A stretch of 64,000 nt of DNA from Hormiphora californensis (lineage: Eukaryota > Animalia > Ctenophora): positions 2,914,001 through 2,978,000 of the forward strand of contig CM035352.1 of assembly GCA_020137815.1 (NCBI GenBank). The letters run 5' to 3'. Shown here piece after piece: positions 2,206-53,571 of this stretch. Under the pieces are notes generated by a model, which was given only the letters and a program-made list of their open reading frames with translations, did no database searches and was not told where the DNA came from. Both the position numbers and the translations under genes were made by a program. Within the stretch, counting starts at the first letter, position 1; each line of letters begins with the position of its first letter.

Positions 2206-2386
<181 letters not shown>

Positions 2387-10168: not shown

Positions 10169-22264
<12,096 letters not shown>

Positions 22265-22945: not shown

Positions 22946-27817
<4,872 letters not shown>

Positions 27818-29051: not shown

Positions 29052-30287
29052 GGGGGGGTTCCAACCTATTTTTTTGTATTTTTTTGTATTTTTTTGTACG
29101 GACCATACATAAAAGTATCCAAAATTCCTGTTTTTTTCCATACAAACAATACAAAAAAATACAAAAAAATACAAAAAAATAATGAAGGATGTGGGTGCGT
29201 GAAAAAAGTATAAATAATACATGTACATGAACATAAACGGAACCCAGCTATACATAAACGGTAAGAAATTGCGATTCGGGGAAATTTCTCGCTTAGAAAA
29301 TACGATTCGGGAAAATTTTCTTGGTAAGAAATTGCGATTCGGGGAAATTTCTCGCTTAGAAAATACGATTCGAGAAAATTTTCTCGGTAAGAAATTGCGA
29401 TTCGAGGAAATTTCTCGCTTAGAAAATACTATTCGAGAAAATTTTCTCGGTAAGAATTTGCGATTCGAGGAAATTTCTCGCTTAGAAAATACGATTCGAG
29501 AAAATTTTCTCGGTAAGAAATTGCGATTCGGGGAAATTTCTCGCTTAGAAAATACGATTCGAGAAAATTTTCTCGGTAAGAAATTGCGATTCGGGGAAAT
29601 TTCTCGCTTAGAAAATACGATTCGGGAAAATTTTCTCGGTAGGAAATTGCGATTCGGGGAAATTTCTCGCTTAGAAAATACGATTCGAGAAAATTTTCTC
29701 GGTAAGAAATTGCGATTCGAGGAAATTTCTCGCTTAGAAAATACGATTCGAGAAAATTTTCTCGGTAAGAAATTGCGATTCGGGGAAATTTCTCGCTTAG
29801 AAAATACGATTCGGGAAAATTTTCTTGGTAAGAAATTGCGATTCGGGGAAATTCCTCGCTTAGAAAATACGATTCGGGAAAATTTTCTCGGTAAGAAATT
29901 GCGATTCGGGGAAATTTCTCGCTTAGAAAATACGATTCGAAAAAATTTTCTCGGTAAGAAATTGCGATTCGGGGAAATTTCTCGCTTAGAAAATACGATT
30001 CGAGAAAATTTTCTCGGTAAGAAATTGCGATTCGGGGAAATTTCTCTCGCGATTTTGGCATGCTACATATGTAAAATATGTATATTAAGCCAAAAACTAA
30101 TTGAAATTAGTTGGCGGGAAAGGTGACCCACTTACACCTTTTGCTCCTGCCGGGTATCACCACGAACTCTCATTCTATCCCTCGGTATCTCAATCTCATA
30201 TTTTTCGAGGGTAACTTATTCCTGTTCGTTCTATCCCTCTCTCTCCTCCCTGTCTCCCTGTCTCGCTCTCTCTCTCTCGCTCTCTCT

Positions 30288-32126: not shown

Positions 32127-32899
32127 TTAGTTGTTTAGCGGCGCCATACCCCATTTGATTCTCAGTGCGCTCAGATGGGTCGCGGCGCCAGACAGTTTAG
32201 CCGCGGCCGCTCAATTGAGTCAGATGTGTGAGCTACCCGCCACCCGGACTGTCATGGTTCCAAATATCGATGCCCTGACTCTGATCATATTCTTGGGCAC
32301 GTCGCGCCCTCTTTTTTCGCGCGCGATTTTTCGCGAACCCCTCACACAGAGGGCACAGTCACGACTAGAGCACTCGGAAAGTGCTTAGCTTCGCTAAACG
32401 GCGCTAGTTAGCGCTTTAATTTTTAGTTTTTCTGATTGGCACTATCTCAAACTGGTGCAACGTATTTGTCTCGATCTATAACTCTCAAAAACAGTGGCGT
32501 AATCGCCGATTTCTGTATACAGTTTTTTGGCGATTACGAGAGATTGAGGGATCTGACAAACACAAAATTCTGGATTTATAAACTTCAGACAATTTGCCAC
32601 CTTCCTACCAAAGGATTTTGTCTGGGGACTTCTGGCCTTTGATTGACAGCCAATTAAAAATATTTGTCCTGAATTTAGTGGGGCTAGTGTGCTAAACCAT
32701 GGCCTCTATTGCAGTAATCTCTTGTGTGTGATTGGCTGATGATGGAGTGAGGTCACGGGGACCCTTTTAATTGTACAACGTGGAACCCACGTTTGCTTGC
32801 TGTGGTGAGTCGTTACTACACGTGATCAATTAAAGGACCAATATCTGTAGCTTATCGGCCGATATAGCCGATCCGATATCGGTCATGTGGGACGCCTGG

Positions 32900-33290
32900 C
32901 ACGTGATTCGAGACCAAGTGAGGCACCCCGTTCTGGCCTCGATTGGTTATTGATGCAGTCATATGGTGATCACGTGTCCCATGTTATGACCAATATGGTA
33001 ATAGGTGGTTCACGTGATACGTTTGTTCTACCGAGATTGGTTTGGACCAAGTGAGGTACCTGTTCTGGCCTTGGTTGGCTGTTGACTGCAGGCAGTGAAA
33101 TCATGGACCCATGTTATAACCAATATGGTCAATTTACAGACGCATGTTATGACCATATGGTCAATACGTGGTTCACGTGATGCGTTTGTTCTGCTGTGGT
33201 TGGTTCGGACCAAGTGAGGCACCCGTTCCGACCTCTGATTGGCTGTTGACTGCAGTCACGTGGTGATCAGGTGACTGATTTTATGACCAT
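32900..33290. repeat. Three degenerate 130-165-bp direct repeats rich in CACGTG/ATTGG, left of the viral genes
   Basis: GACCAAGTGAGG(C/T)ACC at ~32912, ~33045 and ~33208. Confidence 0.7.
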
Positions 33291-33310
33291 ATATGAGAGG
33301 GAGAGAGAGA

Positions 33311-33398
<88 letters not shown>

Positions 33399-33504
33399 CA
33401 GAGAGAGACTGCTCACGACAGTCAACCGGAGAATGCGCGTCTCATGGGAGAGAAAGTTAAAATAAAACAAATTTATTTACCATGAAATATTAAAATGAAT
33501 CATT

Positions 33505-33939
33505 CTACATCATTCTATATACATCGAATCGAATACAAGCGAGACATTCAACTTGCCAGGCTGTTGACGGACGGGAGTTTCTCGCAATTTCTATTAGATC
33601 ATCTCGCTCAATATCACTTTTGATTTTCCTTGTGTCCGCTGGCGTGATTATAAGTCGAGCCGTATCAAAAACCATCGTGTTGTTTGAAGGATGATAAAAC
33701 TTCATATTATCGGTGGGAAGATGTCGCATGATGTATCCAAAGGCTACATTGAGCTTCACATGTTGTTTGTAGTTAGATAGAACTTCGTCCAGCTTACCAG
33801 ATATTTTATCTGTCAAGGACAACGGGAAATGATACACATCTTTCAACTTTCCTCTCTTAACACTTTTTTGAATTGGTGACCAATGTTGACGATAGATCCC
33901 CTGAAATTCTTCAGGGATAGATTCAATAAACGATTCCAT
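33505..33939 (-). CDS. Stand-alone homolog of the N-terminal (terminal-protein-like) region of Polinton pPolB
   Basis: Motifs YRQHW..I, KLNVAFGYIM, FYHPSNN..FD, DDLIE.AR..RPST.W.V, F.VY match my recollection of the pPolB segment preceding the vOTU domain. Stop is followed by AATAAA. Confidence 0.65.
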   Translation of the reverse strand: MESFIESIPEEFQGIYRQHWSPIQKSVKRGKLKDVYHFPLSLTDKISGKLDEVLSNYKQHVKLNVAFGYIMRHLPTDNMKFYHPSNNTMVFDTARLIITPADTRKIKSDIERDDLIEIARNSRPSTAWQVECLACIRFDVYRMM

Positions 33940-34032
33940 TCTAAAATTGAGTTGAAAAACGTTAGTTACTGAAACTTTAATATTAGTACACAGTAAGACA
34001 CATCTGATTCAATAATAAGGTTACAAATCATA

Positions 34033-34434
34033 CTAGTTTAGTTTTCTCTTCTTTGCAGGTGATTTATTGTAGATTAATTTATCAACTTCCTCGTTTACAT
34101 ATCTTCCATAGTAAATAGCCTCTGGGGTCACAGTTAAGATGAAACTTCGCCCGCACGAAATGTAACACTGACGATCCTCCTCTGGTTTGTCTGACTGGGG
34201 AAGTTTCGGTTTAAGAGTCTCGTACTCTTTTGAAAGTGTTCTGAGAAGTTCCCCTTGAGCAGTGAAGAAATGTTTCCCCAATTTATCCAGCAGAGAGTCC
34301 TGTTGACACATGTGTAGAATTGGTGACTTCAAACCAGCTTTGTGAGCTGGGCATGTTTTCTCCGATATCCTACAGACTTTCCGAACCATGCTATCACATA
34401 GTGCTGCAGTCCAAACATTCTCAAAATACAACAT
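34033..34434 (-). CDS. Viral hypothetical protein with C-terminal NLS-like PAKKRKLN
   Basis: 133-aa ATG ORF divergent from the integrase, sharing a TA-rich promoter region. Confidence 0.6.
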   Translation of the reverse strand: MLYFENVWTAALCDSMVRKVCRISEKTCPAHKAGLKSPILHMCQQDSLLDKLGKHFFTAQGELLRTLSKEYETLKPKLPQSDKPEEDRQCYISCGRSFILTVTPEAIYYGRYVNEEVDKLIYNKSPAKKRKLN

Positions 34435-34570
34435 ATTACAACTGTGATATAACAGGTGAATTTCAACTCGATCTTCCTATATATATATATATATATATAC
34501 TATATATAAGAGGTACTAGGCAAGTTCTACCCCTCTTATCGACGTGTTTATTTGTTTCATCCGCACAAGT

Positions 34571-35666
34571 ATGCCACGGAAAAAGGTCCGCAAAAAGTCG
34601 CAACCGAAAGACGACATCCAGAAATTGTACACAAATCCTAAATCTTCAGGAGCGTTTGCAGGCAAAGAAACATTTTATCGATCAGCAAGAGAGCAAAATA
34701 AAAGGTTGAAGAGAACGAATGTGAACAAGGCTCTTCTGAAAAGTGACCCATATACTCTCCATAAGCCGGTTCGAAAGCCGCGTCGTTATAGACGTATCTA
34801 CACCAAGGGTATAAACTATCATTTTCAAGCTGATCTTGTGGATATGAGTGCATACTCCAAGGAAAATGACGGGTACAGGTGGATACTTAATGTGATCGAT
34901 ACATTTAGTAAGAAACTGTGGGCATTTAGACTGAAGAACAAAACTGGTAAAAGTGTTTATGACGCTCTTGAACCGCTTCTTACTAAACTAAGACCTCAAA
35001 AATTTGAGACGGACGGAGGGGGAGAATTTAAAAACAAAAGACTACTGGATCTATTGAGCAAGCTTCTCATTGACCACTATACTGTCTACTCTGATCAAAA
35101 GTGTGCCGTGGTAGAGCGTTTGAACAGAACTATGAAAACTCGAATTTTTCGAGCCTTCACAGCCCAGGGCACACATCGATGGATCGACATACTAGACAAG
35201 TTGGTTCAAGGGTACAATAATAGCCATCATCATTCTATAAAAATGAAGCCGAGTCAAGTTAACAAGAAGAATGAAAATGTTGTACGCAGAACGCTGTTCC
35301 CCACCCGAACCACCTCCCCGTCCGCCAAAGCTCAAAGTTGGTGATACTGTCCGCGTCTCGGGGATTAAAGACGTCTTTCAGAAAGGTTACGAACAAACAT
35401 GGAGTTTTGAAGTGTTCACTATCGACGAAGTCAGAAATACTAATCCCGTTACCTATCGATTGAAAGATTTCGCTGGTGAGCAACTCCAAGGGAGTTTTTA
35501 CGAATCACAAGTTCAGGAGGTCGATAAGACAAATGAAATTTTTGCTGTTGACAAAGTGTTGAAAACAAGGAAACTGAGAGGTCGAGTTCAATATTTTGTT
35601 AGCTTTAGAGGTTACCCTGAATCAGAGAACAGGTGGGTGAATAAATCTGACATGTATGATGTATAA
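34571..35666 (+). pseudogene. Retroviral-type (rve, DDE) integrase with C-terminal chromodomain, +1 frameshift near 35299-35302
   Basis: YTLHKP, QADLVDM, IDTFSK, TDGGGEF, VERLNRTMK, YNNSHH.SIKMKP. The second frame continues KLKVGDTVR..KGYEQTWS.E.F and a chromodomain (VDKVLKTRK..QYFVSFRGYPESENRWV). Confidence 0.9.
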
Positions 35667-35698
35667 AAGTATGTTTTACACTTCTCATTTGATTCAAA

Positions 35699-36301
35699 AT
35701 GTTGCTTTTTGCAAACTCTAATATCCTTGTTATTGGTGCTAGTGGGAGTGGGAAAACAACCACAATCATGAAAATTGTGAGGGAAGAACTTATTTCCCCG
35801 ATGCCAAAGAAAATATTCTACTTGTATGCCGCCCATCAACCATTCATGGATACGTGGAACCAAGAAAACAAACAAAAGGTTGAGTTTGTGTATGGGTTAA
35901 AGCTTGATGTGATAGACAAATACGAGGAACCCAAACTCTTGATTCTAGACGATCTAATGCTTGAACTCAACAAGGATATGGCTCAACATTTCATAGCAGG
36001 CTCGCACCACAAACAAACGACAACTATTTTTGTGACACACAGTGTGTTTCTAAACAACGAGAACTATCGTCTGATAAGTCAGAACGCACAATACATGATC
36101 CTGTTTAAAAATAAAAGGAATCTCTCTCAAGTTAATACGCTAGCACGTCAAATTCTTGGGTCAGATAGTAGTAGACTCATGGAAGCCTATAAATACATTG
36201 GACCGTTCCAGTCTGTATTACTTTCCTTCCACCCACGTGTTCCAGAAGATTTACTGGTTACAACAGATTTCTTTACACCATGTCCAAGCGTGTTCCTGTA
36301 A
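35699..36301 (+). CDS. A32/FtsK-like DNA packaging ATPase
   Basis: Walker A GASGSGKTT, Walker B LLILDD, GSHH..TTIFVTH, RLISQNAQY..LFKN.R. Confidence 0.92.
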   Translation: MLLFANSNILVIGASGSGKTTTIMKIVREELISPMPKKIFYLYAAHQPFMDTWNQENKQKVEFVYGLKLDVIDKYEEPKLLILDDLMLELNKDMAQHFIAGSHHKQTTTIFVTHSVFLNNENYRLISQNAQYMILFKNKRNLSQVNTLARQILGSDSSRLMEAYKYIGPFQSVLLSFHPRVPEDLLVTTDFFTPCPSVFL

Positions 36302-36591
36302 CACTGAAAGCACACCACGGTGCATTAAAGCTTCTTTCGAAAAAGAACACTGCCCAAATACGAATTATTTTGGATAACACACCGTCACTTCGTAAAGCAC
36401 TCAAAATACTATTCAAAAGTATTTTGAGGGGGCATCTAAGTATGGAGAAGCGAGATTTGACCAAACTAAAGAGACACCGTTCCTTTATCAGAAAACACGC
36501 TCACGCACCTATAAAAGTCAACCAGAAAGGTGGTTCGATAATTCGCACCATTCTGCAGACTATACTTCCTCTGTTACCCGCAGTCCTATGA
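36280..36591 (+). CDS. Basic Polinton core-like protein with QKGG protease site and hydrophobic tail
   Basis: Lys/Arg-rich, ends NQKGGSIIRTILQTILPLLPAVL; overlaps the ATPase end. Confidence 0.75.
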   Translation: MSKRVPVTLKAHHGALKLLSKKNTAQIRIILDNTPSLRKALKILFKSILRGHLSMEKRDLTKLKRHRSFIRKHAHAPIKVNQKGGSIIRTILQTILPLLPAVL

Positions 36592-36797
36592 GGTACCATT
36601 TGGTAGAAGCTAACGGGAGTGTAAAAAAGGCTCTCACGATTCCTGCTGAAATTATTCCTTTAAAAGGACTGAGTAGAAAGTACAAGGAACCTAAACCAAA
36701 GCGGAACAAGAAGAGACGTGTTACAAAACGTTTACACTCTGCTAAAGCACTTGTTAATGGACATCATCGTTACAAGCAAAAACCAAAGACCAAATAA
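36588..36797 (+). CDS. Small highly basic protein (possible DNA-binding core protein)
   Basis: ATGA start/stop overlap with the previous ORF; KPKRNKKRRVTKR. Confidence 0.5.
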   Translation: MRYHLVEANGSVKKALTIPAEIIPLKGLSRKYKEPKPKRNKKRRVTKRLHSAKALVNGHHRYKQKPKTK

Positions 36798-37461
36798 CTT
36801 TTCTTCCAACTTCATTGACTCGATAAGCTTAGCCGACAATTTTGAAATCGCTGTAAAGGGTATATTTCATGGTCCAACGTTCAACATTACCGAACTAAAC
36901 AACACGTTTCGGATTTTTGATGGAACTGACTGTATAGCACGGTTGGAAATATCACCTGGATTTTATGCAAACACATGTGATCTGATCAAGGCAATCAACA
37001 ACGTATGTTTGGTGAACGAAATCAATACGAGTTATAAGATAAACTCAGGAAAAGTAACCCTAAAATTGCCAAAGAGTCATGCAATTGGAACTGGAGGTAA
37101 ACAGGACACACTGTTGAGTGTTTTGGGATTCTGTGAACATGGAGTTGATTCCACCCCTACCTATATTGGTCAGTTGGCGGTTGACAGTTATAGCCTGACA
37201 AATCAAAGTGAAATCGCCTTACTGTATTCATCGATTGTTAATAACATGCAAATTAACCAACAACACTCTCGTTTATTAGCATGTTTCCCTATTAAATCTG
37301 TTGAGGGTTATAATTATCATGAAGTAACAAACCCCATGTATCGACCACTAGCTGTGCATGCCTTTATCGACCTACATTTTCTTTTGACTGATATTGAGGG
37401 AAAATTGCTTGAATTTGCTGATTTACCTACTGTTATCATTTTAAATATTCGAAAAGTTTAG
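36757..37461 (+). CDS. Minor capsid protein (penton, single jelly-roll)
   Basis: N..F...I.L...FEIAV, PGFY, LYSSIV...SRLL, NPMYRPL, LTDIEGKLLEF, IILNIRK pattern of Polinton mCP. Confidence 0.85.
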   Translation: MDIIVTSKNQRPNNFSSNFIDSISLADNFEIAVKGIFHGPTFNITELNNTFRIFDGTDCIARLEISPGFYANTCDLIKAINNVCLVNEINTSYKINSGKVTLKLPKSHAIGTGGKQDTLLSVLGFCEHGVDSTPTYIGQLAVDSYSLTNQSEIALLYSSIVNNMQINQQHSRLLACFPIKSVEGYNYHEVTNPMYRPLAVHAFIDLHFLLTDIEGKLLEFADLPTVIILNIRKV

Positions 37462-37522
37462 CCATGTGTCGTTGTCGTTTACTATAAATATAAATACACC
37501 CACCCCTTCAAACCATTCAACC

Positions 37523-37834
37523 ATGCGACAATCGTATTACCCATCTGCACAGGTCAGAGCCGCTTTCGATCGTGCTCTTGACAGTGACCTTGGTGTCTAT
37601 CACAATCAAACTGGTGGGGGTATTGGTGGTTTCTTTAAAAAGTTGCTTCGAACTGTAGTTCCTATTGGAAAATCAGTTCTCCAGAAAGGTTTTGAAATTG
37701 CGAAACCTGGACTCCAGAGCGCTGGGAATGAATTAGTCAATGCTGCTAGCAAATATGCAACTAAACAAATCGAAACTGGTGCTTCAAAACTTTCTAACAA
37801 GATCGTTAAGCGAAAAAGGGACGCTCTCTCGTAG
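37523..37834 (+). CDS. Core/membrane-lytic-like protein with QTGG site followed by an amphipathic helix
   Basis: HNQTGGGIGGFFKKLLRTVVPIGKSVL; basic C-terminus KRKRD; TATAAATA ~40 nt upstream. Confidence 0.75.
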   Translation: MRQSYYPSAQVRAAFDRALDSDLGVYHNQTGGGIGGFFKKLLRTVVPIGKSVLQKGFEIAKPGLQSAGNELVNAASKYATKQIETGASKLSNKIVKRKRDALS

Positions 37835-37873
37835 GGTATAAAAGGCGAAGTTTAAGGGTTCATTTACAACACC

Positions 37874-39163
37874 ATGGCCAAGTACGTCCAGTCATCTGAG
37901 GGCTTACCCACACAACTTCACTTGTGGAGTCCCCTACCAACACAAACCGGGATCCTTGCGACAAAACTGATCGATGTTTACCCCAACAACTCAATCGACA
38001 GCTCTGACACAATTTCATTTACTATCCCTGCTCTGGAGCAACTTATGTTGGACTCCGTGGAGGTCTTTACTGAACTGAGGGTACTTACAAATGAAGGAGG
38101 AAACCCGGCTGCTAAGGCAAACGTGTCGACTGCCCCTCATCTTGGTGCTATATTGTGGAGGAACGTTGAAGTCTCGTCTGGTGGTGTTTCTCTAACTCAA
38201 TCCTACGACAATTCCTACGCGATGTTTAAGTTCTGGGATGATGCAATTCACCATGGTAGGGATGAAGAAGCCTTTCTTATGCGTAAGGAAGGTATGCTCC
38301 TTGATAGTGTCGGTGATAAGTCTGAGAGTGAGAGTGTTGTATTTTTCCCCGAAACTGGTACCCCGAAAAATACAAACGGACAATTGCGAGCCAAGAGGAT
38401 TTCCAAGGGCGAAAAAGTGTTTCTTTGCTCTAAATTGAACGTATCAATCTTTAATCAAGCGACTTTACTTCCCACAAATTTGGAGTTTCAAGTCCAGCTC
38501 ACAAAGAACTACAGCGAAGCAATCCTTCTGTCAGCCGCAAATGATACTTCGCAGGTTAAGTTTGATAGGGTATTTTTGAGGTGTAAATTTCAACAGCCAA
38601 GGGACGAAATTCTGAATATGCTCGAAGTTAAACTCGCCAAACGGAATGCTATATACCATGCTGACAAAATGCTGATGAACATCCACCCCATTAGCACCAA
38701 ATCGGTCACAATTGACAATTTATTCAACGGACCACTTCCCTACTTTTTCTACGTTGGAATACAGGATCGTAGTGCGTTTGGAAAAGCACGAAACAAAAAT
38801 CCTTTTTCCATTCACTTGATAGAAAGTGCCCAACTTTATGTAAACGGGGTGGAGTATTATCCACAGAAGCTTAAAATGACTGACCATGATGAAACTAACA
38901 TGGCAGTAGCTCTTGCAGAAGCGACAGGGTCTCGTAAAGACAACTTCATACTGCATCATTTCCGTGTGTACCCTGCTCTCGGTTTTGATTTGACACAAGA
39001 TAAGTCCCAGAATCAACATGGTATGAACTTGAACAGGACTGGTAATGTGCGAATTGTACTGGAGCAATTAAATGATGTTCGATTGGAAAAGGTTCTTTTC
39101 ACCCTTGCCTACTACGACCGGATTATAGAAATCGATAAAGATCGACGGCTTTTCGCTATATAA
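37874..39163 (+). CDS. Major capsid protein (double jelly-roll, Polinton PY/hexon)
   Basis: 429 aa; L.LW...PTQT.I, ISFTIP, LLPTNLEFQVQLTKN, NLFNGPLP, NPF, FDLT.D, GNVRI, IIEIDKDR. Confidence 0.9.
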   Translation: MAKYVQSSEGLPTQLHLWSPLPTQTGILATKLIDVYPNNSIDSSDTISFTIPALEQLMLDSVEVFTELRVLTNEGGNPAAKANVSTAPHLGAILWRNVEVSSGGVSLTQSYDNSYAMFKFWDDAIHHGRDEEAFLMRKEGMLLDSVGDKSESESVVFFPETGTPKNTNGQLRAKRISKGEKVFLCSKLNVSIFNQATLLPTNLEFQVQLTKNYSEAILLSAANDTSQVKFDRVFLRCKFQQPRDEILNMLEVKLAKRNAIYHADKMLMNIHPISTKSVTIDNLFNGPLPYFFYVGIQDRSAFGKARNKNPFSIHLIESAQLYVNGVEYYPQKLKMTDHDETNMAVALAEATGSRKDNFILHHFRVYPALGFDLTQDKSQNQHGMNLNRTGNVRIVLEQLNDVRLEKVLFTLAYYDRIIEIDKDRRLFAI

Positions 39164-39192
39164 GCTTCTAAATCAATGGTTTTCCTCCGGAA

Positions 39193-39615
39193 ATGAAGCA
39201 ACTAAAAACAAAGTCGTTCAATGAAATTGAGACAGACCGATTTAAAGGAGCGTTTGCATATGATGAAATACCAGAAGATCTGTCTGATAGTCAATGGAGT
39301 TTTGTTGTCAATACAGCTCCGTCTACCGATGTTGGTGAACATTGGATTGCTGTTATTTTCAAGGAAGGGGTGACATATTTCATGGACAGTTATGGTCGGC
39401 AGCTGAGTCGTAGAGAAGTCACGTTTACGCCAGCATTTGTGGATAAATTGAAAAGTGTTGTACGGGGACGTATAGTTAGCAACAAGAAAATTTTGCAGCA
39501 GCTAACTAGCAATGCATGTGGTTATTACGCTGTGTATTTTGTAGAGAGATTGTCTGTAGAAAGTTTGAGACAAACACTACAACCGTTTACAGGAAATTTA
39601 AAGCAGTCAGAATGA
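39193..39615 (+). CDS. Adenain-like cysteine protease (C-terminus probably frameshifted)
   Basis: VNT....GEHW, FMDSYG, QQLTSNACGYY give the His/Asp/Gln/Cys catalytic set. Confidence 0.9.
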   Translation: MKQLKTKSFNEIETDRFKGAFAYDEIPEDLSDSQWSFVVNTAPSTDVGEHWIAVIFKEGVTYFMDSYGRQLSRREVTFTPAFVDKLKSVVRGRIVSNKKILQQLTSNACGYYAVYFVERLSVESLRQTLQPFTGNLKQSE

Positions 39616-39680
39616 ATGTTTTGTTTTACAATATTGCTTTTCATAAATTGAGTTGTTTATCTTTACTAACTATGTCCACA

Positions 39681-39995
39681 TTAGCCACCCAAATCACATT
39701 CAATGTCCGCTGGATCAAAACTTTTCACGCTAATCGGAGAGGGTGGACCATAAACTGGTTGAACGCGTCTCACTGGTAGATCGAATATGGGATACCCATC
39801 TTCAAACTTAACTTTACGCTTTCTCTTCTTCTCTTCCAACTCCATTGTATACATCTTTTGGTTTGCCTCCTCAACACGTTGTTTGGCTTCTTGTTTTTCT
39901 ATGTAGGCATCTGCATGGGGTATTCGAGGAGGAGAGAGATTTTCCCATGATTCTTCATCAAATTCTATGTTATGCGAAGACCAGCACAGACCCAT
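39681..39995 (-). CDS. Viral hypothetical protein with N-terminal MGLCWS acylation-like motif
   Basis: 104-aa ATG ORF, upstream TATATAAAT, coiled segment and KKRKRK. Confidence 0.6.
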   Translation of the reverse strand: MGLCWSSHNIEFDEESWENLSPPRIPHADAYIEKQEAKQRVEEANQKMYTMELEEKKRKRKVKFEDGYPIFDLPVRRVQPVYGPPSPISVKSFDPADIECDLGG

Positions 39996-40155
39996 GACAA
40001 ACTAAAACACACGGTTTTGAGAAATGAAACAAAATAGTAGACAATGATTTATATAGCACACAATTCACAGTCACACATATCATAATCATCATCCGCTAAC
40101 TCATTCGCATTTGTTTTAAAGACTATAACACGGATAGAAGCTAACGAAATAATGT

Positions 40156-40500
40156 TCATCGAAGGCTGCTCCGGTTGAATAAGTTGTAGAACGGAACTAC
40201 CGGTTGCTTCTGCAACTGTAAGAAACCTTTGATGTGTGCGTTTAAACCACGTCGCAAGGTTTCTTGATCCTCCCAGAAATAACTGAGTTCAATTCTGATT
40301 GGTTGATCATCAATATAACGCCTGTCAACCCCAGAAACAATGGGAGGGATCTGTTCTGGTAGTGTTACTGGAAAGCGAAAGCTGTCTACAGTTAGACCAA
40401 TCTGTACATCATAGCTTAGATTGTTTCCGTAGCTCTCAATTAATGAACCAATCATATCCAAAGTATCCTCGTAAAATACAGTATCCTCGATGGCAACCAT
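40156..40500 (-). CDS. Viral hypothetical protein
   Basis: 114-aa ATG ORF with TATAAAAG ~35-40 nt upstream. Confidence 0.6.
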   Translation of the reverse strand: MVAIEDTVFYEDTLDMIGSLIESYGNNLSYDVQIGLTVDSFRFPVTLPEQIPPIVSGVDRRYIDDQPIRIELSYFWEDQETLRRGLNAHIKGFLQLQKQPVVPFYNLFNRSSLR

Positions 40501-40752
40501 TTTAGAAATGCCAAAATAAAAGATCGCGAACTCTTTTATAGGGGGTGTCTACGTCCTTGCTGATTACTGCAGTGGGTTATTTGATTTGGAGACTTTTGGT
40601 GAGGTAGTGTAATCAAAGTGTGCTTCAAACACCTGGTTAATATGGTACAGTTTTGACAAAAAATTCGCGACTGGGGCGGAGATGTTCGAGCAAAATAGGC
40701 TAGTAAATTACGAGTCTCCATGTCGATTGGAAGAGAAATGTTTCATCAGACT

Positions 40753-41320
40753 TTATATAGCTGTCTCCCGCTGCTCTTCATTATGATGATCGTTAAGAAC
40801 AAGTCGATACTTGGTCTTTATGAACTCGAAAACAGTTGGGGCTTTAACTCCAGTGAACAGGCATAAGATGATTACGAATGGGATACAATAAAGAGCGTAC
40901 ATTACATTACATACATAAACTTGTTGGCGTGCCGTAACGTTTACAGCGATACACTTTTTCTTCCGTGCCCTCGTCCACAAAACCCCCCTTGAAAGATTTT
41001 ATCTGACAAGTAACTATTAGTGTGTTGAACTTTAGCTGTTGCACTGACCCTTTGCTATCTATCAGGTTCATACCAACCCCGTTAACTGTTTTTGAAGGCC
41101 ATTGAAATGTAGAAATTGGGCTAGTTGAAGCAGTAAAGACTTGTACATTTTGAGATGTGTTGTACACCACAAGTTTTATCAGCTCCCCCTCTTTTGTAAG
41201 AAACGCACGTTTGTTATGACCTCCGGATAAAGAGAGAAAATTCGTACAATTCGTGTCACTAAACTCGACCAAGAATGAGTTGGTGATGAAAACTGAGGTG
41301 AAAAAAGCCGTCAAATTCAT
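40753..41320 (-). pseudogene. Type I membrane glycoprotein-like gene split by a frameshift at ~40899-40913
   Basis: Hydrophobic N-terminus, NCT/NTS sequons; TM-like MYALYCIPFVIILCLFTGV in the next frame after an (ATGTA)3 run. Confidence 0.55.
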
Positions 41321-41362
41321 TTTCTCGATTTCTTTTAGTTTGCTTTATTTTCTCTTTATAGC

Positions 41363-41466
41363 AAAAGTGGGGTGGACGGCCGGGAATGATGCGGTGGGAT
41401 TCGAACCCACGACTGCCACACTACTAAGTAGTTTCGGCACCTTAGGGGCCCGGCTATCCTCCCCGG
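41363..41466 (-). ncRNA. tRNA-Leu-derived Pol III-type small RNA (not a canonical tRNA)
   Basis: TAGCCGGGCCCCTAAGG (A-box/D-arm-like), perfect T-arm GTGGG-TTCGAAT-CCCAC, terminal stem CCGGGGA.GAT/ATC.TTCCCGG, TTTT 13 nt downstream of the stem. Confidence 0.6.
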
Positions 41467-42242
41467 TGTTAAAATGGAATTTTGTCTTTTAGAAACAGGT
41501 TGAGCTCTCTACATAGCGAACGTCGAGAGGAGATGAGGCGACGAGAGGGAGATGAGACCCACGACTGCACACTACAAGTAGTAGGGGCTAGTTACTCGAC
41601 AACTTAGGTCCTCTCTATTTCAGCTCTCTCGGTATCGAATTCTGCTCCGTTATCTACCCGGGAGAAATTAGAGAGTAAACCTAAGATATGATATATATAA
41701 GAAGAGACCGGAGAGGAGGAGAGAAGATGAGGCACTAAGCGATATATAGCTATATAAGGTACTCTATATACTCTCTCTCATTTCCCTATACCGTCGTCTC
41801 ATGTGCAGCCACAATGACCATCCTGGTTTGACCAGTGTAAATTAATCAAGCCAACGAGAATCCGAGAGTAGTAACGAAGGTAGTTCGACCGAAAAAAGTA
41901 GTTTTCAAAAACAATTGGTATATTCGCGGGCCCGAGGAACAACCACATATCACGAAGCCACGCTGGGATTTAACCCACCCAGTATCGTTCTCCTCCTGTC
42001 TTTTCCTCTTTGCAGACGCGTAAATTTATAATTAGTGTTGTTATATAATAACTTTCAAAATGATCACAAACTTCAGATCCAGCTCGAAGGATCACATATT
42101 ATTAGCTCGAGTAAGGAACAATTTAGACTAAAAGTGTTCCTGTGTAACCGCATGACACACCAATTTTCCAAAAGTCACACACACCACACACACACCCTAT
42201 AAATAGAGCTGTGTGACAGTAATACCTGATGTAATTCAGATC

Positions 42243-43050
42243 ATGTACGTTGTTGCTAGTAGTTACGGACAAAATCCAGGCAATTCATTTTACGCGCAAA
42301 GGAGAATTCACGATGTAATGTGAATACGAATATAACTACAAGGGTGTTGTGGTGTCAAAAGTGTGAGCCATGCTCCCTCGTCGTTTGCTAATGTTACAGA
42401 AGCTAACAGCTACTTCACAATTTTCAAAAACCCGCATGGTGATCGTCAAACCAGGATGTATTCAGTTCCACCAGGATTTTATCGAACTAGTGCAGAATTA
42501 TTACTGGCAATGCGAAAAGCTATCTCTGACAAAGAGCGGGAAAACCTGAGAGATGTGGATATTGATAATTGGGAGACTCCAGACTATATCGCTGATGAAA
42601 ATACACATACCTGTGCTTTGGTATATACTGCTAAATCTAAGTATGGTTTTCCGGCCAAAGACAGTGGAGTGATAAGATTTTTTAGGAAGTTCATGGAGCG
42701 AACATCTATTATAGATTTTCCCAGAAAACTTGCTGGTAAAATGGAACCTTTCGACATGCGTTGTCAACTTGGTTATATCTATTCAAATATTGTCCCTGAA
42801 ATACATACAATTAGTAATAACTCTTGACAAGGGTTGTAAGGGTTCTGCCCCCCTGTTCTTTTAACCAGCACAAGTGCGGTTACAATATTATGATTTTGTA
42901 ACCCATGTATTTCAAGTGAGTTTCCGTTTTTGGCTGAAATGCTACTTCAGTATCTCAGATAATATGGGACAACTTTTTGAATTTCATGAAGACGATGAAA
43001 CGAACTTTCCAACTATCATTGTATTACATTTTCGAAAAATATCTAACTGA
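42243..43050 (+). pseudogene. Second, divergent minor capsid (penton) paralog with several frameshifts
   Basis: MYVVASS.GQNPG, GVKSVSH, NVTEAN, VPPGFY, YIYSNIV, PMYF, ISDNMGQLFEF, PTIIVLHFRK parallel the 36757 ORF; TATAAATA at ~42198. Confidence 0.75.
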
Positions 43051-43228
43051 GATTCAAAAATAATTTAAAATAACCTGTGTTGTGATATTTTGTTAATTAT
43101 TCGAATGCACCACTCCTCCTTTCAAAAATCCTACTTATTGTCGTAGTTGTATGTCTTGTAGTTGTCTGTGTCTGTCTGTCTGTCTGTCTGTTCTGTCTGT
43201 GTTCTGTCTGTCTGCTGTCTGTCTGTCG

Positions 43229-43282
<54 letters not shown>

Positions 43283-44086
43283 ATGTCTGTTCTCTGTCTG
43301 TCCGGACAATGTTGAGTAGAGAGACCAGCCCCGTCCTGGATTTAAAGACTCCATCGTGGAGCAAAGTAACCACACCAACACACAGTCCTAAAACATCTGT
43401 CTCCAACCCCAAACGACCAGTAGCAGTAAGGAACAATCTGTTCAACTTTCCAGAACCTACAGAAGCTCAGGTCACGATGGTTGATTAGCATCCGGACTAG
43501 GGGTAACTTCAACTCCTTCGGTGACACAGACGATGAAGAGGAGGAGGAGAGACGTCCATCCCAGCTCCCCCTCCAGTCGCTGACAAACCACCTCCATCTC
43601 CTGATCTCCTAAGGAGGACACCATCGACTCATCTCCGTCAATTAGGCGGGGTACCCACTCGCGGAATGCTTCAGGAATATCTACACAAGCAGGAATCCTT
43701 CCACTGGTTAGATAAACAAACGCCAACCCCCCCTGGGTTGAGTTGGAACAAGAACATCTTCCTAGAGCACAGAGTCCAGTGATCAGGTTGCCTCGCTTAT
43801 CGGGTAATTTAGGTCCCTACTACTCGATATATACTACTAACGAGGGCAGGGTACAGACCCTGAGAAACAGATAAATAACGTGGATCCGGTATTAAAAACA
43901 CAATACAAAGCACTATACTAGCTAGAGAAAAACACAATTAGACTAACTTAATACACAATGGGAGGGAGATAGACAAGGGCTAGTTAAAATGCGAGTAAAC
44001 AAAAACGGGTTGAGAAAAGCTAGCCCTAGTCTAGGGGAGAACCAGGGAGGACTATAGGAATGACGAGCAGTGGTATGAACTTATAG

Positions 44087-44547
<461 letters not shown>

Positions 44548-47500
44548 GGAGATTGAGAGGAGAGAGATTGAGAGCGATCAAAAGACACTTGAAGCATGCC
44601 ACTGAGAAGTAGTATAATACCACCCCCCCCCCCCCGTCATCTATATAATATAAAGGAACCCCCGATATACCGTGCAAAATGACTCCCCCCCCCCCCCCCA
44701 TGGATCCTGGTATATCGGGGTCGGAATGTGATGAAGTATGTATCTCCACAAAACCTCCAGCATTCAAATTTGTCCTTAACCGTTTTATTTTCATCCAGAC
44801 GTTTCTACGAGATCATTTGGATCGGCCTTCCAGTCTCTTCGATAATATGTCTCCATTCCGTGAGATTGAAAATACAAGGTATAAAATGCTTTATATGGCA
44901 GTAGGAATTAATTAAAAAATAAATACATGCATATTAAGAACAAATTAGCTCAGTTTAGTTCATTGTCACAGTTAGTTATTCATACTTTAGTGATAGTTCA
45001 TTCTTAAAATGTCCATAACTTATTTATTATTACCACCCCTTTCTATTTAGGTACTGGAGTTATCCTTGTATGGGTCACTTTCTTGAGCCTCTACAGTGTA
45101 GAGTCTACACCTCCCCCTCCCCCATCCCTTCCCACTCTGTTCATGTTCACAGTCCGAGATATGAGGCTGCTCCACCCTCGGGATAGCCGCCAGTCCGCCA
45201 GGTATTTTCTACCCCCTCTCTTTAGTACTTCAATTTCCGTGACGAGGCTTTTGCAGTATTTTACTAGCCTTCTATCAGGTTTTCAGGGCCCCTTAGCTGC
45301 AGCAGACGCTGTGTGGGTCCCTAGTGTGTACGGATTTTATGTGTGTATTGAATTCCTTACCTTTGTATCATGTATGTACACCTAAACAGGGTCTGTCACC
45401 AGTGTCGCATCGTTTTGAAATTCTCCGCACAAACGACTAGCACAAAATGACAACATGCAAAGAATTGCTTGCTGCTCAGTTTGTTTTTATGTTAGCGACT
45501 TGAAACAAAGTACATCGTTTAGAGAATTAAATTGTCTATGTCTAGGTGAAAACTAGACGAAAAATGAGCAAGTACAGGAGTAACTAGAGAAATCTAAAAA
45601 GTGACCTCAAAAAACCGTCTTTTCGACCAAATATTTTGAAATCGCCATAGCTCTGGAAGTAGGGCTGATCTCAAAAATCGGTGAAGAGTAGGTCGAACAG
45701 TTTTGTCTGAATTTTCACGTAGTACCGGTTTTAACCTGATAGGACCAACCACCAATGAGCCTACCTCAAAAAACTTTGAAACAACCTGATTTTTTCAAAA
45801 TTTCGCTCTTCCCGAGAATTTTGGAAAAGTGTCGCATCATTTTCGCGATTTTGATACGACACTTTCCCCCTGCATATAAATGCCTATATCTCTCTTCCTC
45901 TCTAGTTTCTACGCCACGATCTCACTTTTCTAGTGTATCTAGGAGGTTACACTCACTGGGGAGGGGGGCTGCAGTTTTTGGTTGTGCTGCTGTAGAATAT
46001 CTGGCCAGGAATTGGCTAAATATGCAACTAATTGATATCAAATCAAAAATCACTCTACCCGACTAATTTCGATACGCTGAATCACGTGAGCAACTTTTTA
46101 AAGCCCACAGAGGCCGATAAAGTGCTCTAATTGGGCATAATTGGGTCTAATTGACCGAAATTACAACTTTTCTCCTGGAAACGCTATCATGACAAATTTA
46201 GGCACTTACCCCACTGATTTTGATACCCTGATTCACATGAGCATCTTTTATCAATGATGGATAAAATGCACGAATTGGACATAATTGGGTCTAATTGGCT
46301 AGCATAATTATAAATTTTCCTTGTAAACACATTTACTTCCTTTGAAGACACTTCCCCATTGATTTTGATACCCTGATTCATTATATCAGCAGGGCATCTA
46401 CATCTTAGTGGTGGGTGCTCTAATTGGGTCTAATTGATTGAAATTACAATTCTTTCCAAAAAAAATTACAAATAAATCCGTATGAGGGCACCTTCCCCAA
46501 TAATTTGGATACGCTGATTCGAATGAATAACTATTAACTATTATAAGCTCTAAGCAGCGGAGCCAATTCCCTAATTGAGTATAACTGGGTCTAATTGATC
46601 AAAATAATTACAATTATTTCCTGTTATGTATACATAGGGTGCACTTTACATAATGCTTCTCTCTCAAATCAGTGTAGTTAGTATCTCCAAAATCCAGGTG
46701 AACTTTTACAGGGAAAAGTTGTAATTATATTGCTCAATTAGACACAATCATGCTCATTTAGAGCATTTTTTCCACAATTTCGAGCTTAGAAAAGATACTC
46801 ATGTGATTCAGGGTATCGAAATTAGTGGGTTAAGTGCCTAAATTTGTCATGATAGCGTTTCCAGGCGAAAAGTTGTAATTTCGGTCAATTAGACCCAATT
46901 ATGCCCAATTAGAGCACTTTATCGGCCTCTGAGGGCTTTAAAAAGTTGCTCACGTGATTCAGCGTATCGAAATTAGTCGGGTAGAGTGATTTTTGATTTG
47001 ATATCAATTAGTTGCATATTTAGCCAATTCCTGGCCAGATATTTTACAGCAGCACAACCTTGGGCACGTCGCGCCCCCCATGTTCGCGCGCCCGTAGGGC
47101 GATCCCCTCACATAGGGGGCACAGTCACGACTAGGGCACTCGTAGAATGCTTCGTTCTGCTAAACGGCGCTAGTTAGCGTTTTAATTTTTGGATTTTCTG
47201 ATCGGTCATGTTCTAAATGAATGCAACGAACAGGTCTCGATTTGAAACTCTCAAAAACCGTGGCGTAATCGCCGATTTGCTCAAATCGGTTTTTTGGCAA
47301 TTACGGGAGAACGGAATATCCATAAAATCCCAAACTCTGGGATATGTTAGAGGAGACAATTTGACACCTTCGTGTCGAAGGATTTTTCTCTTATTCTTCT
47401 GGTCTTCAACTGACGGCCATTTGAATTAATTTGACCTCTCTTCCCCCGACCCTTAGTCCCACTAAACGACAGCTTTATAAGTAACCATCTTTTTTTCCCA

Positions 47501-48083
47501 GGTAGAGAATCCCTTGAACTGGTGCAACGTATAGGTGGATAAGCCAGAAACGATTTCTGGACAGAGGAATCGACTCTCAAAGTTGGATGATTTCAAACAG
47601 TGATTGGACTTTTTGGGACACTTTGACTTTAAAAAGAGTGATACATTTATCATTTTCCGACATAATTTTACCTAATTTGACCAACTAAAGTGTTTAATTA
47701 ATCGTTAATTGCTTAATTAAGAAAATCGGACGCGCAAATATACAAACGCGCTTGTTTTGGACAGAAATTGCGCGCGCTGAAGAATCTTCAAAGTGAATCG
47801 TGACGGCGCGAACTGAAAAAGTTGCGCGGTTTTTTTTTTCGAAACTCGAAAAGTCAAGAATAATTTGCGCACTATGCCACGGATCAGGACCCATCCTCTT
47901 AACCCATTCTAAGGGCCTGCAGCAAAGAGAAAACTTTTCCGGGACTATTGAAAATCTAAGCGATGAATTATTCTGAGGCTCGAGCGACCTATACACAGCG
48001 TATGGCGACATTTAAAGGATTCTTACCTGAAACGTCTACAGAAAGTTCAGAACGTCAGACGTCTACAGAAAGTTCAGAACAGT

Positions 48084-49630
48084 GCGACACGATACATATA
48101 TGGGAAAAGAGGAAAACGGGGTGTAACAAAACTTCGCATGAAATCACACTTCTTGCCTGTGAAACAGCGAATAGAGTACAAAATTTGCTTGATGGTATAC
48201 AAGATTCTTCATCTTCATGATCAATCACCTCCATACATGTCTGAGATGTTAGTGAAGTGGCCCCAGAAAGTGAAATCACTCCGAGTGGATAATGACGTCA
48301 CCGCTCTGAAAGAGGTGCGGAGGAGTGAGTACCACTACGAAAACACTAGAGGCGCTTTCAGTATTGCTGCACCTAAATTATGGAATCAGCTACCACGATC
48401 AATCCGGGACTCAGAATCCCTTACTACTTTTAAAACATCCCTGAAGACGCACTTGTTCTTTAGAGCATACAACCAATGACCGGCAAAATAATCCTCACTT
48501 CCCTACATCCACATGGATTCCTGAGTAACTACTGTCTCTAACTCCTATTCCTGATTCCTGGGCTCCCTTTTTCTCGTGTATTCCTTCACATCGATACCTG
48601 CATCCTTTCTCTCCTACATTATTCCATGTTGATCCCTGGGTCCTTTACTCCTACCTTGCTCCACATCGCTCCCTGGGTCCTTTCCCAACCTTACTTCATA
48701 TCGATCCCTGGGTCCTTTACTCCTACTTCCACTCCACATCGATCCCTGGGTCCTCTACTCCTACCTCCTCCACATCGATCCCTGGGTCCTTTACTCCTAC
48801 CTCCTCCACATCGATCCCTGGGTCCTCTACTCCTACCTCCTCCACATTGATCCCTGGGTCCTTTACTCCTACCTTACTTCACATCGATCCCTGGGTTCTT
48901 TACTCCTACTTCCACTCCACATCTATCCCTGGGTCCTTTACTCCTACCTCCTCCACATTGATCCCTGGGTCCTTTACTCCTACCTCCTCCACATTGATCC
49001 CTGGGTCCTTTACTCCAACCTCCTCCACATCGATTCCTGGGTCCTTTCCCTACCTTGCTCCACATCGATCCCTGGGTCCTTTCCAACCTCCTTCACATCG
49101 ATCCCTGGGTCCTTTACTCCTACCTCCTCCACATCAATTCCTGGGTCCTTTCCCTACCTTGCTCCACATCGATCCCTGGGTCCTTTCCCAACCTCCTTCA
49201 CATCAATCCCTGGGTCCTCTACTCCTACCTCCTCCACATCGATCCCTGGGTCCTTTACTCCTACCTCCTCCACACCGATCCCTGGGTCCTTTTCCTTGCG
49301 CTGCTCCATATCGAGCACATCCTCATTCCTCATTCTAAAAACTATTTACAACATCCCTTCTACACGCTACTCATCACCTCTTATCACGACAGTTGATTGA
49401 TTCGGTTTTTTGTACATACATATACACACTGTGAAGAGTGTTTGAATTAGACGAGATAACCCAGCTAGAGGTAGCTACGGGCGGAAACGTCCGCATGTTG
49501 GACATATATATTTTTTAATTTGTGAACCAATATGTTTAGTGTATTAGCGGGGTGTCAATAATTACATTTATTTAATTTATTGACATTATAAATATAATTT
49601 TAATCTTGTAATCTTGTAATCTTGTAATCC
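48084..49630 (+). mobile_element. 5'-truncated L2/CR1-group LINE (ORF2 C-terminus, stop at 48479, plus 3' UTR)
   Basis: HFLPVKQRIEYKI..., AFSIAAPKLWNQLP..IR....L.TFK..LKTHLF; probable (AATCTTGT)n tail at ~49602-49630. Confidence 0.8.
48588..49312. repeat. 36-bp minisatellite (~20 copies)
   Basis: TCCACATCGATCCCTGGGTCCTTTACTCCTACCTCC repeated. Confidence 0.9.
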
Positions 49631-51253
49631 ATTTCAACTGAGATAAAAATTTGGGGCTCAGGAAGATCATGTTTAGTTCTTATTCCTAAATGAGCTTTTT
49701 ATTTTTAAACATTGTAAACCTCTCTAGTGTGTTTCATGGCGAAACGAGGAAATCTGACGAGTGACGAAATGGATAAATCTGAATGAACGGTACAAAAACC
49801 CAGGATTTGATGCCCTCCAAACATCAATTTTATCACTTTTCTAATTGGATACTGCGTTCTGGATACTGTGTTTAGTATCCCATGCTTGGCACTCTCTCAG
49901 ATACTCAGCAGGTAAGATATGCTATCACCACGAGAAGTGGGGGACACAAAGTCATAACCCAATTTGATCCAAGCGACAGTGCGCTCAGATGGGGTCGGCG
50001 GCGCAAGGCAGCACCCTTGACCCGTGATAACAATCTCCCCTATTTCAGAGAACCACAGCAGTGAGTAGCTGCAAGATACTTCCCAGTTATTATTCAACGT
50101 ATCTTCCACAATGTCCACAGACCAGAACTTACAAGAAAGGAGAAGAAATTGAACAGCTACCATTACCCCCTGATCTCATCACCATCCCCTCACTCTGGTA
50201 GGTGATAGTTTTGTTTCTTAGTTAAAGTCCACCTGGAATTTGTACATAAACTAAAGATATATTAAACACTGCCATTACAACTATTTTAGAACCCCTTCTA
50301 CTCATCCCCTTGCCCTATCACCAGGTAAACAAACATGAGTTTAGAAATCTGGTGTTGAGGTGACATGACAGCTGTGAGATGACAAGAGGGAATGGTGGGT
50401 GTGCCAGTCTCATCTCTGTAAAACGGTAGGCACCACTGAAGTTATACCAAATTATATGTAATGCACAGTATTTTTACACAGTACAGTTATACACAGTATA
50501 ACAGTACACACATACGTCATACATGTATTACCAACACTGCGGGTTCGTCACCAAGGGAATCTCAAAACACAGTGGTTCACCAAGTTTACAACTGTTTCGG
50601 GAGATAGTTTTGGTGTGTATTTTGGGTGGGGTGATGTTCAAGAGGTCAGCCGAAATTTACACTGTAGTAGAGTCGATTAGCACACATGACTAGACTCTCG
50701 CAATTTTTACTGCCTCATCGTTATTGCCTGGCTCTATCCTCTTTCCGTGCGCCCCGCCCTCTTTTACAAATGTAAAGGAGAGTTATAACATCGTTATGGA
50801 TCTTACGCAGCATGTTGAGAATTTATATATATATTTGCCATTTGCCAACCTACTCTTGACGTTATATCTGTAACCCACACACTCAATTCCAGGTGTTCAA
50901 CGGTTGTCCTTCTCAAAAATAGTCCATCAGAGGATAACTACTATCTCAGACCCTGCTAGTTATTGATGGGAAAAGTGGTTATGTTGCATGTCACGCTCCT
51001 CTGCTCGCCGTCAAGTGGTTATGACATCGACATTATTTAAGGTGAGAGCAACCAGTAGTTTATACTTTGTAGTTCTCTATACTAGTAGTTGACAATTCAA
51101 AATATTTTAATTCTATATGTTTTCTCTCGCCCTACCTGCTACCATTCTATGAATCCTCTCTCTTTCACCCTCAGTAGCTGTCAGTCTCTCCCTCACTATC
51201 TCTCTAGCTCTATCTACCTCTCTCTCCGCCTCTCTCAATCCCCCCTCTCTTTC

Positions 51254-51292
51254 TTGCCCGCGTAGCGAACATGAGGGGCGCGACGTGCCCAA
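51254..51292 (-). mobile_element. 39-bp minimal element of the TTGGGCACG family
   Basis: Reverse complement TTGGGCACGTCGCGCCCCTCATGTTCGCTACGCGGGCAA; TSD CTCTCTTTC at 51245-51253 and 51293-51301. Confidence 0.8.
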
Positions 51293-52000
51293 CTCTCTTT
51301 CGTTGTAGTACTGGATTTAAGATATCTCACATGTGATCCCATCCTTCTAGTTGTGGGTGGTTGTCTTGCGGGTGGTTGTGTTGCGGGACCCGATCACTAG
51401 AATTTGCTGTTAGGTTTATCAATTGTTTAGCAGACATAGCCCCTGGCAACCGTGTATCTTCCCTGGGTGGTATTAATTCCACAACCTTCTTTTTCCATTT
51501 TTGGTGACCCCCTGAAATTTATAAAACTTTCCTAGTAACTCCGTAGGGCTATTCCCAAGATAGCAGAAATGAAATCTAACCTATTCTCTCTACAGGTAAC
51601 TTTACGATAAGAGAGTCGAAGGATATTTTAAACTGCACTAGGGAATCAATAATGAGTTGTCGAACCTAATGGTGAGTTTACAACCCTCTAACACTGTCCC
51701 CCTTTACCAACCCTCTAACACTGTTCCCTCTTTACCAACCCTCTAACACTGTTCCCACTTTACCAACCCTCTAACACCCCTTCCCTCTCAGGAAGGAGAT
51801 CTTGAAGAGGAACAGTCAGGCCCAGCTGCAGTCAAGAGATCCCCACTGGAAGCTATGACCCAGACTGATAAGGAGCTAGATCACATCTCGACCTGAAACT
51901 GATGATTTGGAGGATTACTGTGATAAGGTTTGTGTTCAGCTCTAACCCCATTTAGGTTGCTTTTCTCAATCCCCTAACTGCTAATTTACACTCCCGTGTA

Positions 52001-52894: not shown

Positions 52895-53571
52895 TACTCG
52901 TATAATAGCCCATGTTATATCTAATCACTCAACTCCTGCTACCCAAACCGCAGTTTCCATATTTTATCGGTTATCCCACCCCAACACCCCTAACTCACCC
53001 CCTAATCAACCAGGCCCTAACACCCCATCTCCTCCTCTCCAGGACCACTCAGAGCCGGAATCCGAGTTGAATGTAACAAACTGCACCACATGTTATTATG
53101 ACGGCAACTGTGGCCTGTGGATGCTGTTGTGATGTGTGCTGTGATGTCAGGACATTGAAGAAAAAAATTCCTTACTCCCCTAACACTGCATACATCATCT
53201 ACTGACTGCAGTATTGATCCAGCTCCATTTTAGCTGTTTACATGGAATGGGAATAGAATTATAAATACAGTGAATGGACTCATTATAAACAATACCAAAT
53301 ATTGGAAGGATCCCGTGGTAGAAATATGACAGTGGACACTGGACACTCTTTGTTGGACGTGCACATTTTTTGGATCGAATAATTTTTGAGCGTCCCATGA
53401 GGTGTTTTAGGATGTTCTCAATTCTTACTCGGTGATATTAAAAACACAAATCTTAGGTATCCATTGCTATATATTACAGAGTGGATGGAAATTGGAAAAT
53501 TAGTTTTGAATACATAGAATTCATAAATATATTCCCCCCCCCCCCAAAAAAGTGTCATTTTTGCTAATATA

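Follow-up and report, generated by a model that had tools for sequence, protein, structure and literature searches.

The gene of interest lies on the minus strand at 33505..33939 of the window, by which is meant the whole 64-kb stretch of DNA analysed, and encodes a free-standing terminal protein (TP/D1) of 144 aa, reading from its own ATG at 33939 to a TAG stop. The frame is open over 167 aa and the ATG is the first Met within it; a splice acceptor 5′ of the ATG, pointing to an upstream exon, was not conserved (3 of 22 loci, against 2.0 in shuffles). A candidate polyadenylation signal, AATAAA, is found on the same strand at 33472..33477, 27 nt 3′ of the stop. An earlier, sequence-only reading of this DNA had described an ORF with its own ATG, a stop and a downstream AATAAA, and all three are present, the hexamer being weak evidence when taken alone since it occurred in 5.65% of shuffles of the 60 nt 3′ of the window stop. 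Among loci with a related free-standing gene, hereafter free TP, AATAAA was found 3′ of the gene in 9 of 21, against 4.4 in shuffles (9 was reached in 21 of 2000 shuffles). The stop is not an assembly error, since a single gapless short-read contig of run X3 spans 33411-34437 with one base different. Contigs of the seawater run X11 matched other parts of the element and not the TP gene, and have no bearing on expression. The ORF is more than a chance frame, as 20 of the 26 scored candidates of similar length were its relatives (44-88% identity, 119-175 aa). Reading on past the stop in any frame gave no vOTU-like sequence, and a profile search of the frames detected no vOTU, exonuclease or polymerase (post-TP pPolB) sequence within the 64 kb. 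The best of 2753 window frames of at least 15 aa scored 2.1 bits in this search, which as a control recovered six pieces of the intron-split pPolB gene of locus L022.

Within a Polinton-type block of genes, the free TP lies furthest to the left. The element is bounded on this side by a (GA)n microsatellite (33295..33409), past which come host repeats. On the other side follows a conserved Cys/His-rich gene of 133 aa (34033..34434, minus strand) without a Pfam family, which travels with the free TP and was found by tblastn in L011, L016, L019, L020, L021, L022, L023, L035 and L041; at about 130-180 aa, it accompanies the free TP in these nine loci and the window and is a second marker of the lineage. 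On the plus strand lie an rve integrase with a C-terminal chromodomain (34571..35666; Pfam rve E 4e-11, Chromo E 4e-07), in two frames in the assembly, and a P-loop packaging ATPase of A32/FtsK type (35699..36301), weakly matched by Pfam FtsK (E 0.003) and Pox_A32 (E 0.014) and 66-70% identical to those of L023 and L020. They are followed by a small basic protein (36280..36591), 49-54% identical to L023 and L020 and presumably a core-protein candidate from its motifs and gene order, and by a putative minor capsid gene (36757..37461) with homologs in L011 and L020, which on the same grounds we take to be penton-like. The major capsid protein (37874..39163, plus strand) is likely a double jelly-roll (DJR) protein; its model was of low confidence (pLDDT 44.6) and gave 33 rows at E≤0.001, many of them DJR major capsid proteins. 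An Adenain/Ulp1-like maturation protease (39193..39615, plus strand) matched Pfam Peptidase_C5 at E 7e-04, just under the curated cut-off. From the ORF list and similarity, three to four short ORFs occupy 39681..41344 on the minus strand, that at 40907-41320 having an L020 homolog. A second penton-like ORF (42336..42827, plus strand) matched the first by BLASTP at E 3e-06 and the second penton-like gene of L022 weakly (E 0.004), which suggests that the element reaches at least to this point. Two penton-like genes are apparently present in the window element and in L021-L023.

Of the genes by which a Polinton is recognised, the window copy holds the integrase with chromodomain together with the ATPase, protease and DJR capsid, each single match for the latter being weak or from a low-confidence model, and lacks a pPolB gene. 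A search of 32700-44500 for terminal inverted repeats gave nothing longer than 34 nt at 71%. The candidacy of the 150-bp repeats at 32870-33296 as a terminal repeat was dismissed, since they have no inverted partner in the window and show patchy depths unlike those of the element. At several sites in the element, three runs have contigs with small indels relative to the window, where the integrase is split, so some breaks may be assembly errors. The assembly of the right end is doubtful, since short-read contigs from runs X3 and X5 diverge from the window sequence at 41486 or 41896; the segment 41536-41860 had zero cover in all four runs. In organism B, DNA related to the element extends over much of 33411-41450, and the other genes of the window element look intact. 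The window copy is most likely truncated or non-autonomous.

The surroundings are repeat-rich animal DNA with host exons of a TRAFD1/XAF1 zinc-finger gene at 26361-27727 (minus strand) and a host exon with an F5/8 type C domain at 60734-61249 (plus strand). Two arrays of a 63-bp tandem repeat (19800-20900 and 29130-30170), with long open frames on both strands and shared T-rich flanks, likely belong to one host repeat family. Inverted-repeat pairs of 97-100% identity with arms of 430-670 bp, at 13136-16645, 23666-25063, 45539-55136 and 61514-62860, are likely non-autonomous DNA transposons. A short repeat at 32130-32207 displayed very high contig depth in all four runs and in both organisms and appears as an abundant small element.

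A profile built from 21 free proteins matched the domain directly before vOTU in long pPolBs at E 1.5e-18 to 1.6e-10 (three of the 7991 longer proteins scored), and in a 50%-identity library 1629 proteins matched the free-TP profile at E≤0.001. Pfam DNA_pol_B_2 was found on 2 of the 12 long profile matches that were scanned. The best 150 matches with 7 added pPolBs yielded 71 domains followed by a vOTU Cys motif, 32 short proteins and 45 that were left unclassified. A profile from 91 fused TP domains gave the window ORF 131 bits and the reversed ORF −0.7, a reciprocal score that is partly circular as the fused set was gathered with the free profile. The predicted structure of the free TP (pLDDT 94.7) has a core of strand-helix-strand-strand-helix-strand, the order by which PRD1-like TPs are described in Krupovic 2024 (bioRxiv 10.1101/2024.03.18.585575; PMC11161782). 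A Drosophila adintovirus protein was both the top viral fold match and the sole one at E≤0.001, and polymerases of densovirus/bidnavirus type and of MELD viruses were within the top seven viral fold matches of the model. Among PDB structures the best fold match was the Pol IV little finger 4IR1 (Z 5.9, rmsd 2.9, 86 aligned), a middling Z score tied with those of de novo designed proteins, and at least 9 of the top 17 PDB rows were little-finger domains of Y-family polymerases. 4IR1 is also the structure used for TP comparison in Krupovic 2024. The Y-family little-finger/PAD domain has the same four-strand, two-helix fold; it differs from the free TP in its 5-10% identity at Z below 6 and in being a domain of cellular polymerases without a priming role.

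Foldseek of the model against the PDB gave no match at E≤0.001, and no family was assigned to the ORF by Pfam and NCBIfam. An adenovirus TP was found neither among the Pfam matches of the ORF nor in its top 50 viral fold matches; a direct match to the adenovirus or PRD1 TP was not obtained, the link to these proteins coming through Krupovic 2024. Leads from the Atlas were all below 0.9, two of them pointing to Preplasmiviricota or DNA_pol_B_2. A TAF1 bromodomain retrieved by PDB sequence search (E 4e-05) covered 50 positions only, conflicts with the sheet-rich model and was dismissed as chance. IMG/VR, scanned with the ORF and its alignment as well as with the ATPase and the L017 polymerase, yielded no relatives, and a scan of prokaryote genomes gave a single match, L056, a 725-bp contig carrying a free-TP gene in a Cytophagales MAG, most simply explained as eukaryotic contamination. 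The free-TP ORF shares homology with the terminal-protein domain that precedes vOTU in Polinton pPolBs: this proposal of the sequence-only reading stood up, with the free profile, the fused profile and the predicted fold in agreement. The profile and structure comparisons it had called for bore out the likeness to the pPolB N-terminus, with adintovirus and little-finger folds in addition, and not a direct one to the adenovirus or PRD1 TP.

Metagenomes provided 55 loci, 27 of the free type and 28 others. Every free locus with a closed 3′ end (25/25) stops within 19 residues past the last aligned position, and 23 of these within nine. No polymerase sequence follows the stop in the free loci and no sister copy reads through to vOTU, so the view of the sequence-only reading that a free-standing gene ends where the polyprotein would continue, at a conserved stop, was confirmed. 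Among the 28 other loci, 25 run on into post-TP pPolB sequence. Start, length and stop of the free TP are kept over 33-88% identity. With near-identical copies left out, 18 of 22 free loci had the motif TATAWAW in the 100 nt upstream of the gene, against 3.3 in shuffles (0/2000); it was absent from the corresponding 100 nt of the window copy. All 171 pairs among 19 coding sequences had pN<pS, and dN/dS was 0.09-0.27 in the nine unsaturated pairs among the 16 closest. A core Polinton gene was found in 8 of the 27 free loci, and 13 either hold a polymerase or have some gene in common with the window element. These counts overstate independence, several loci being near-copies of one another.

That the ORF is a dead fragment of a pPolB gene could be argued from the window being without a polymerase and from the existence of degraded pPolB copies that stop at this very position (L044). 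Such a reading is refuted, and its probability is negligible, by ends conserved in start, length and stop over that range of identity, by the TATA boxes, by purifying selection, and by the free TPs forming a separate lineage with unrelated genes, not vOTU, downstream. The free TP is a gene of its own and not a broken polymerase.

A pPolB was found in three of the free-TP loci (L017, L022 and L026), never fused to the free gene, and no polymerase was seen in the other 24 of a set in which only 9 of 27 loci reach 3 kb. In L022 the pPolB (138-3460, minus strand) lies 3.6 kb from the free gene, runs in the opposite direction and begins with its own TP and vOTU; a 2.1-kb gene-free gap separates it from the next gene. 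It is interrupted by five GT..AG introns of 94-217 bp inside conserved motifs, and the related part in L017 is intron-free. L022 is the only contig in which the free and the fused TP were both seen directly. Contig L023, which agrees with L022 at 98% across an overlap of 3186 bp, also holds an integrase and an ATPase, the latter with 66% identity to its window counterpart. The L017 polymerase ends 253 bp before the free TP and has its N-terminus off the contig; its closest full-length relative, P0322 (1364 aa), is 88% identical over 711 residues and has a TP at 99-230 followed by vOTU. Only the C-terminus of the polymerase is on contig L026. vOTU Cys and His motifs were found in L022, P0322 and P0213, and the fused TPs of L022 and P0322 keep a Pro-x-Ser/Thr loop.

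Trees were built by quick searches from about 147 columns with SH-aLRT support only. In the 42-row tree of post-TP sequence, from which three short rows had been dropped, L022 and P0322 grouped with a Pleurobrachia-labelled pPolB (SH-aLRT 99), which indicates kinship among the polymerases that accompany free TPs. In the 93-row TP tree, with free rows thinned by hand and fused rows by similarity, 36 free proteins fell on one side of a branch with support 95, and 42 free proteins together with the long-branch fused P0023 on one side of a branch with support 90, P0023 sitting next to the wider free group. The fused TPs of L022 and P0322 were outside the free lineage, that of L022 on a long branch (1.5-2.1). 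Three short library proteins within the fused TPs are probably fragments. As the free TPs form a lineage apart from the fused ones, an old duplication is indicated and not a split. A relative at 54% identity is labelled Pleurobrachia bachei and forms a well-supported subclade with the window protein, and a protein labelled Mnemiopsis leidyi shares 50-86% identity with pieces of the L022 polymerase; by these database labels on its kin, the lineage likely has a ctenophore host.

A true adenovirus-like split, with a free TP and a polymerase starting at vOTU, has a precedent in print in the Stylophora pistillata polinton, which has a separate TP gene and a vOTU-fused polymerase (Krupovic 2024, section 10; PMC11161782), where the TP split is said to have arisen independently in several polintons. 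The L017 and L026 polymerase N-termini, off their contigs, would leave room for such an arrangement, and the long branch of the L022 fused TP could mean decay. However, L022 and P0322 keep the fused TP with its loop and the vOTU catalytic Cys/His motifs, the free TP has no long helical extensions, and P0202, with an apparently late start, is a shorter call of the P0322 cluster. A split of this kind is considered very improbable here, and the proposal of the sequence-only reading that the polymerase is encoded separately as in adenoviruses is not supported as a rule of the family. With a fused TP still on the polymerase near the free gene, the free TP is likely a spare primer and not a split-off half.

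In line with the outsourced polymerase of the sequence-only reading, it might also be that elements without a polymerase retain the TP to prime their ends while a helper Polinton provides its polymerase in trans, the window being such a satellite. Consistent with this, post-TP pPolB was absent from 64 kb in a search that recovered six pieces of the L022 gene as a control, the remaining element genes look intact, related DNA of organism B spans much of 33411-41450, and L011 has no polymerase in 10.6 kb of its 14.1-kb contig. The pPolB in 3 of 27 free-TP loci shows on the other hand that the gene did not originate with satellites, the window copy is not flanked by terminal inverted repeats, and its right-end assembly is placed in doubt by the contig departures at 41486 and 41896. 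As the explanation of the free TP the satellite is regarded as unlikely, and an outsourced polymerase may apply to the window copy alone.

In the predicted structure the loop between the last helix and the last strand reads R123-P124-S125-T126. Thr126 (33562..33564, minus strand) is the predicted DNA-linking residue by alignment, model and the placement rule of Krupovic 2024 (section 6). The loop has the hydroxyl expected of PRD1-like TPs, a Ser/Thr/Tyr with a nearby Pro or Gly before the last strand. A Ser or Thr occupies position 126 in 43 of the 44 free domains and in 89 of the 90 fused ones, and a Pro stands two residues before it in 84% of the free and 93% of the fused. Other residues are invariant in the free TPs and absent from the fused: H37 (44/44), P84 (44/44), C135 (43/43), and R137 and D139 (97%). 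Going by the alignment, these may reflect a new docking surface or, equally well, a change of function. The model has no long N- or C-terminal helical extensions, only short N-terminal helices common to fused domains. The net charge of the free TPs is modest (median +3). Complex prediction for the L017 polymerase fragment with the L017 free TP, run without alignments, was uninformative (score 0.00).

The free TP is a conserved paralog of the pPolB TP domain in likely ctenophore-associated Polintons that have a fused-TP polymerase; its homology, free-standing state, selection and occurrence on one contig with a TP-fused pPolB are shown. The reading we favour, at about even odds, is that it serves as an extra protein primer. 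Each molecule of the TP-vOTU-Exo-Pol polyprotein would supply a single primer. Once replication has been initiated, vOTU is predicted to sever the TP, which would stay on the 5′ end of the genome; priming by the fused TP and its predicted release by vOTU are the model of Krupovic 2024. Released in this way, the polymerase could take up the small TP, made from a transcript of its own, via Thr126 and start further rounds, and the supply of primer would become independent of the polymerase's long gene. The extra-primer model draws support from the conserved hydroxyl and Pro, from the promoter and from the selection, and is weakened by the lack of polymerase-binding extensions and by the new invariant residues.

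The same two of these features speak for a free TP that no longer primes. Its little-finger-like sheet would bind genome ends or duplex DNA, making it a helper for packaging, integration or nuclear delivery, or a competitor throttling replication. The fold is related to a DNA-binding domain, the invariant free-specific H37, C135, R137 and D139 are on the first and last strands, and extensions by which a polymerase might be bound are missing. The gene is moreover located among structural and accessory genes in variable position, and the polymerase already has its own primer. Yet the hydroxyl at the linking position is as well kept as in the fused domains (43/44 versus 89/90), and the modest charge is unlike that of a DNA-condensing core protein. 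A non-priming role is thought possible and somewhat doubtful. To a similarly tentative degree, a lineage of two-TP Polintons, in which the fused TP serves the first initiation and the free TP re-primes, may be a living duplication-first intermediate toward the adenovirus split, with polymerase-less copies keeping the primer and borrowing a helper polymerase.

Compared with the D1/TP domain of Polinton (Maverick, adintovirus) pPolBs as presented in PMC11161782, the free TP is alike in profile, in predicted fold and in the hydroxyl with nearby Pro between the last helix and the last strand; it differs in forming a gene by itself, for 144 aa and with a start and a stop of its own, and in its particular invariants H37, P84, C135, R137 and D139. 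The Stylophora pistillata polinton likewise has the TP as its own gene, whereas its polymerase, as described in section 10 of Krupovic 2024, starts with vOTU (a split) and the polymerases linked to the free TPs here keep a fused TP (a duplication). The adenovirus pTP and the phage PRD1 TP are, according to Krupovic 2024, also stand-alone PRD1-like TPs working with a protein-primed polymerase. They differ in having long helical extensions or an insertion and a TP-less polymerase, the adenovirus vOTU being inactive. The helical extensions are suggested there for polymerase binding by the PRD1 and adenovirus TPs.

A free TP in a polinton is already known from Krupovic 2024, and a second TP within one element would, judged from sequence, be the apparent novelty. 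The string 'duplicat' is absent from the main text of PMC11161782, and ctenophores are unmentioned in the main texts of Starrett et al. (PMC8502044), bioRxiv 10.1101/2024.03.25.586562 and bioRxiv 10.64898/2026.10.13.758929. Among the literature listings searched, with limited coverage of subscription papers, none pointed to an element in which a fused and a free TP occur together. Priming by the Polinton D1 is a structural prediction in Krupovic 2024, and a natural small single-domain TP with its natural partner polymerase makes priming directly testable without polyprotein processing. If the free TP primes, the TP would be detachable by duplication before loss of the fused copy and vOTU, so that the adenovirus layout could be reached step by step. 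A free TP without priming activity would instead be a TP recruited to a new job at DNA ends.

Several further arrangements of TP domains were encountered. A second, more divergent group of free TPs (L041, L042, P0063, P0076, P0084 and P0130; 146-155 aa) adjoins the main lineage in the tree. In P0066, a pPolB N-terminal fragment, two tandem TP-like domains precede vOTU as an in-frame duplication of the TP. A C2H2 zinc-finger-like ORF lies just 5′ of the free TP, on either strand, in L002, L004, L008, L009, L011 and L015, and many fused pPolBs bear C2H2 fingers before the TP. P0056, an 858-aa protein with the Lingula anatina label 'zinc finger protein 729', consists of two zinc-finger and TP units without vOTU and is possibly a Polinton TP captured by the host.
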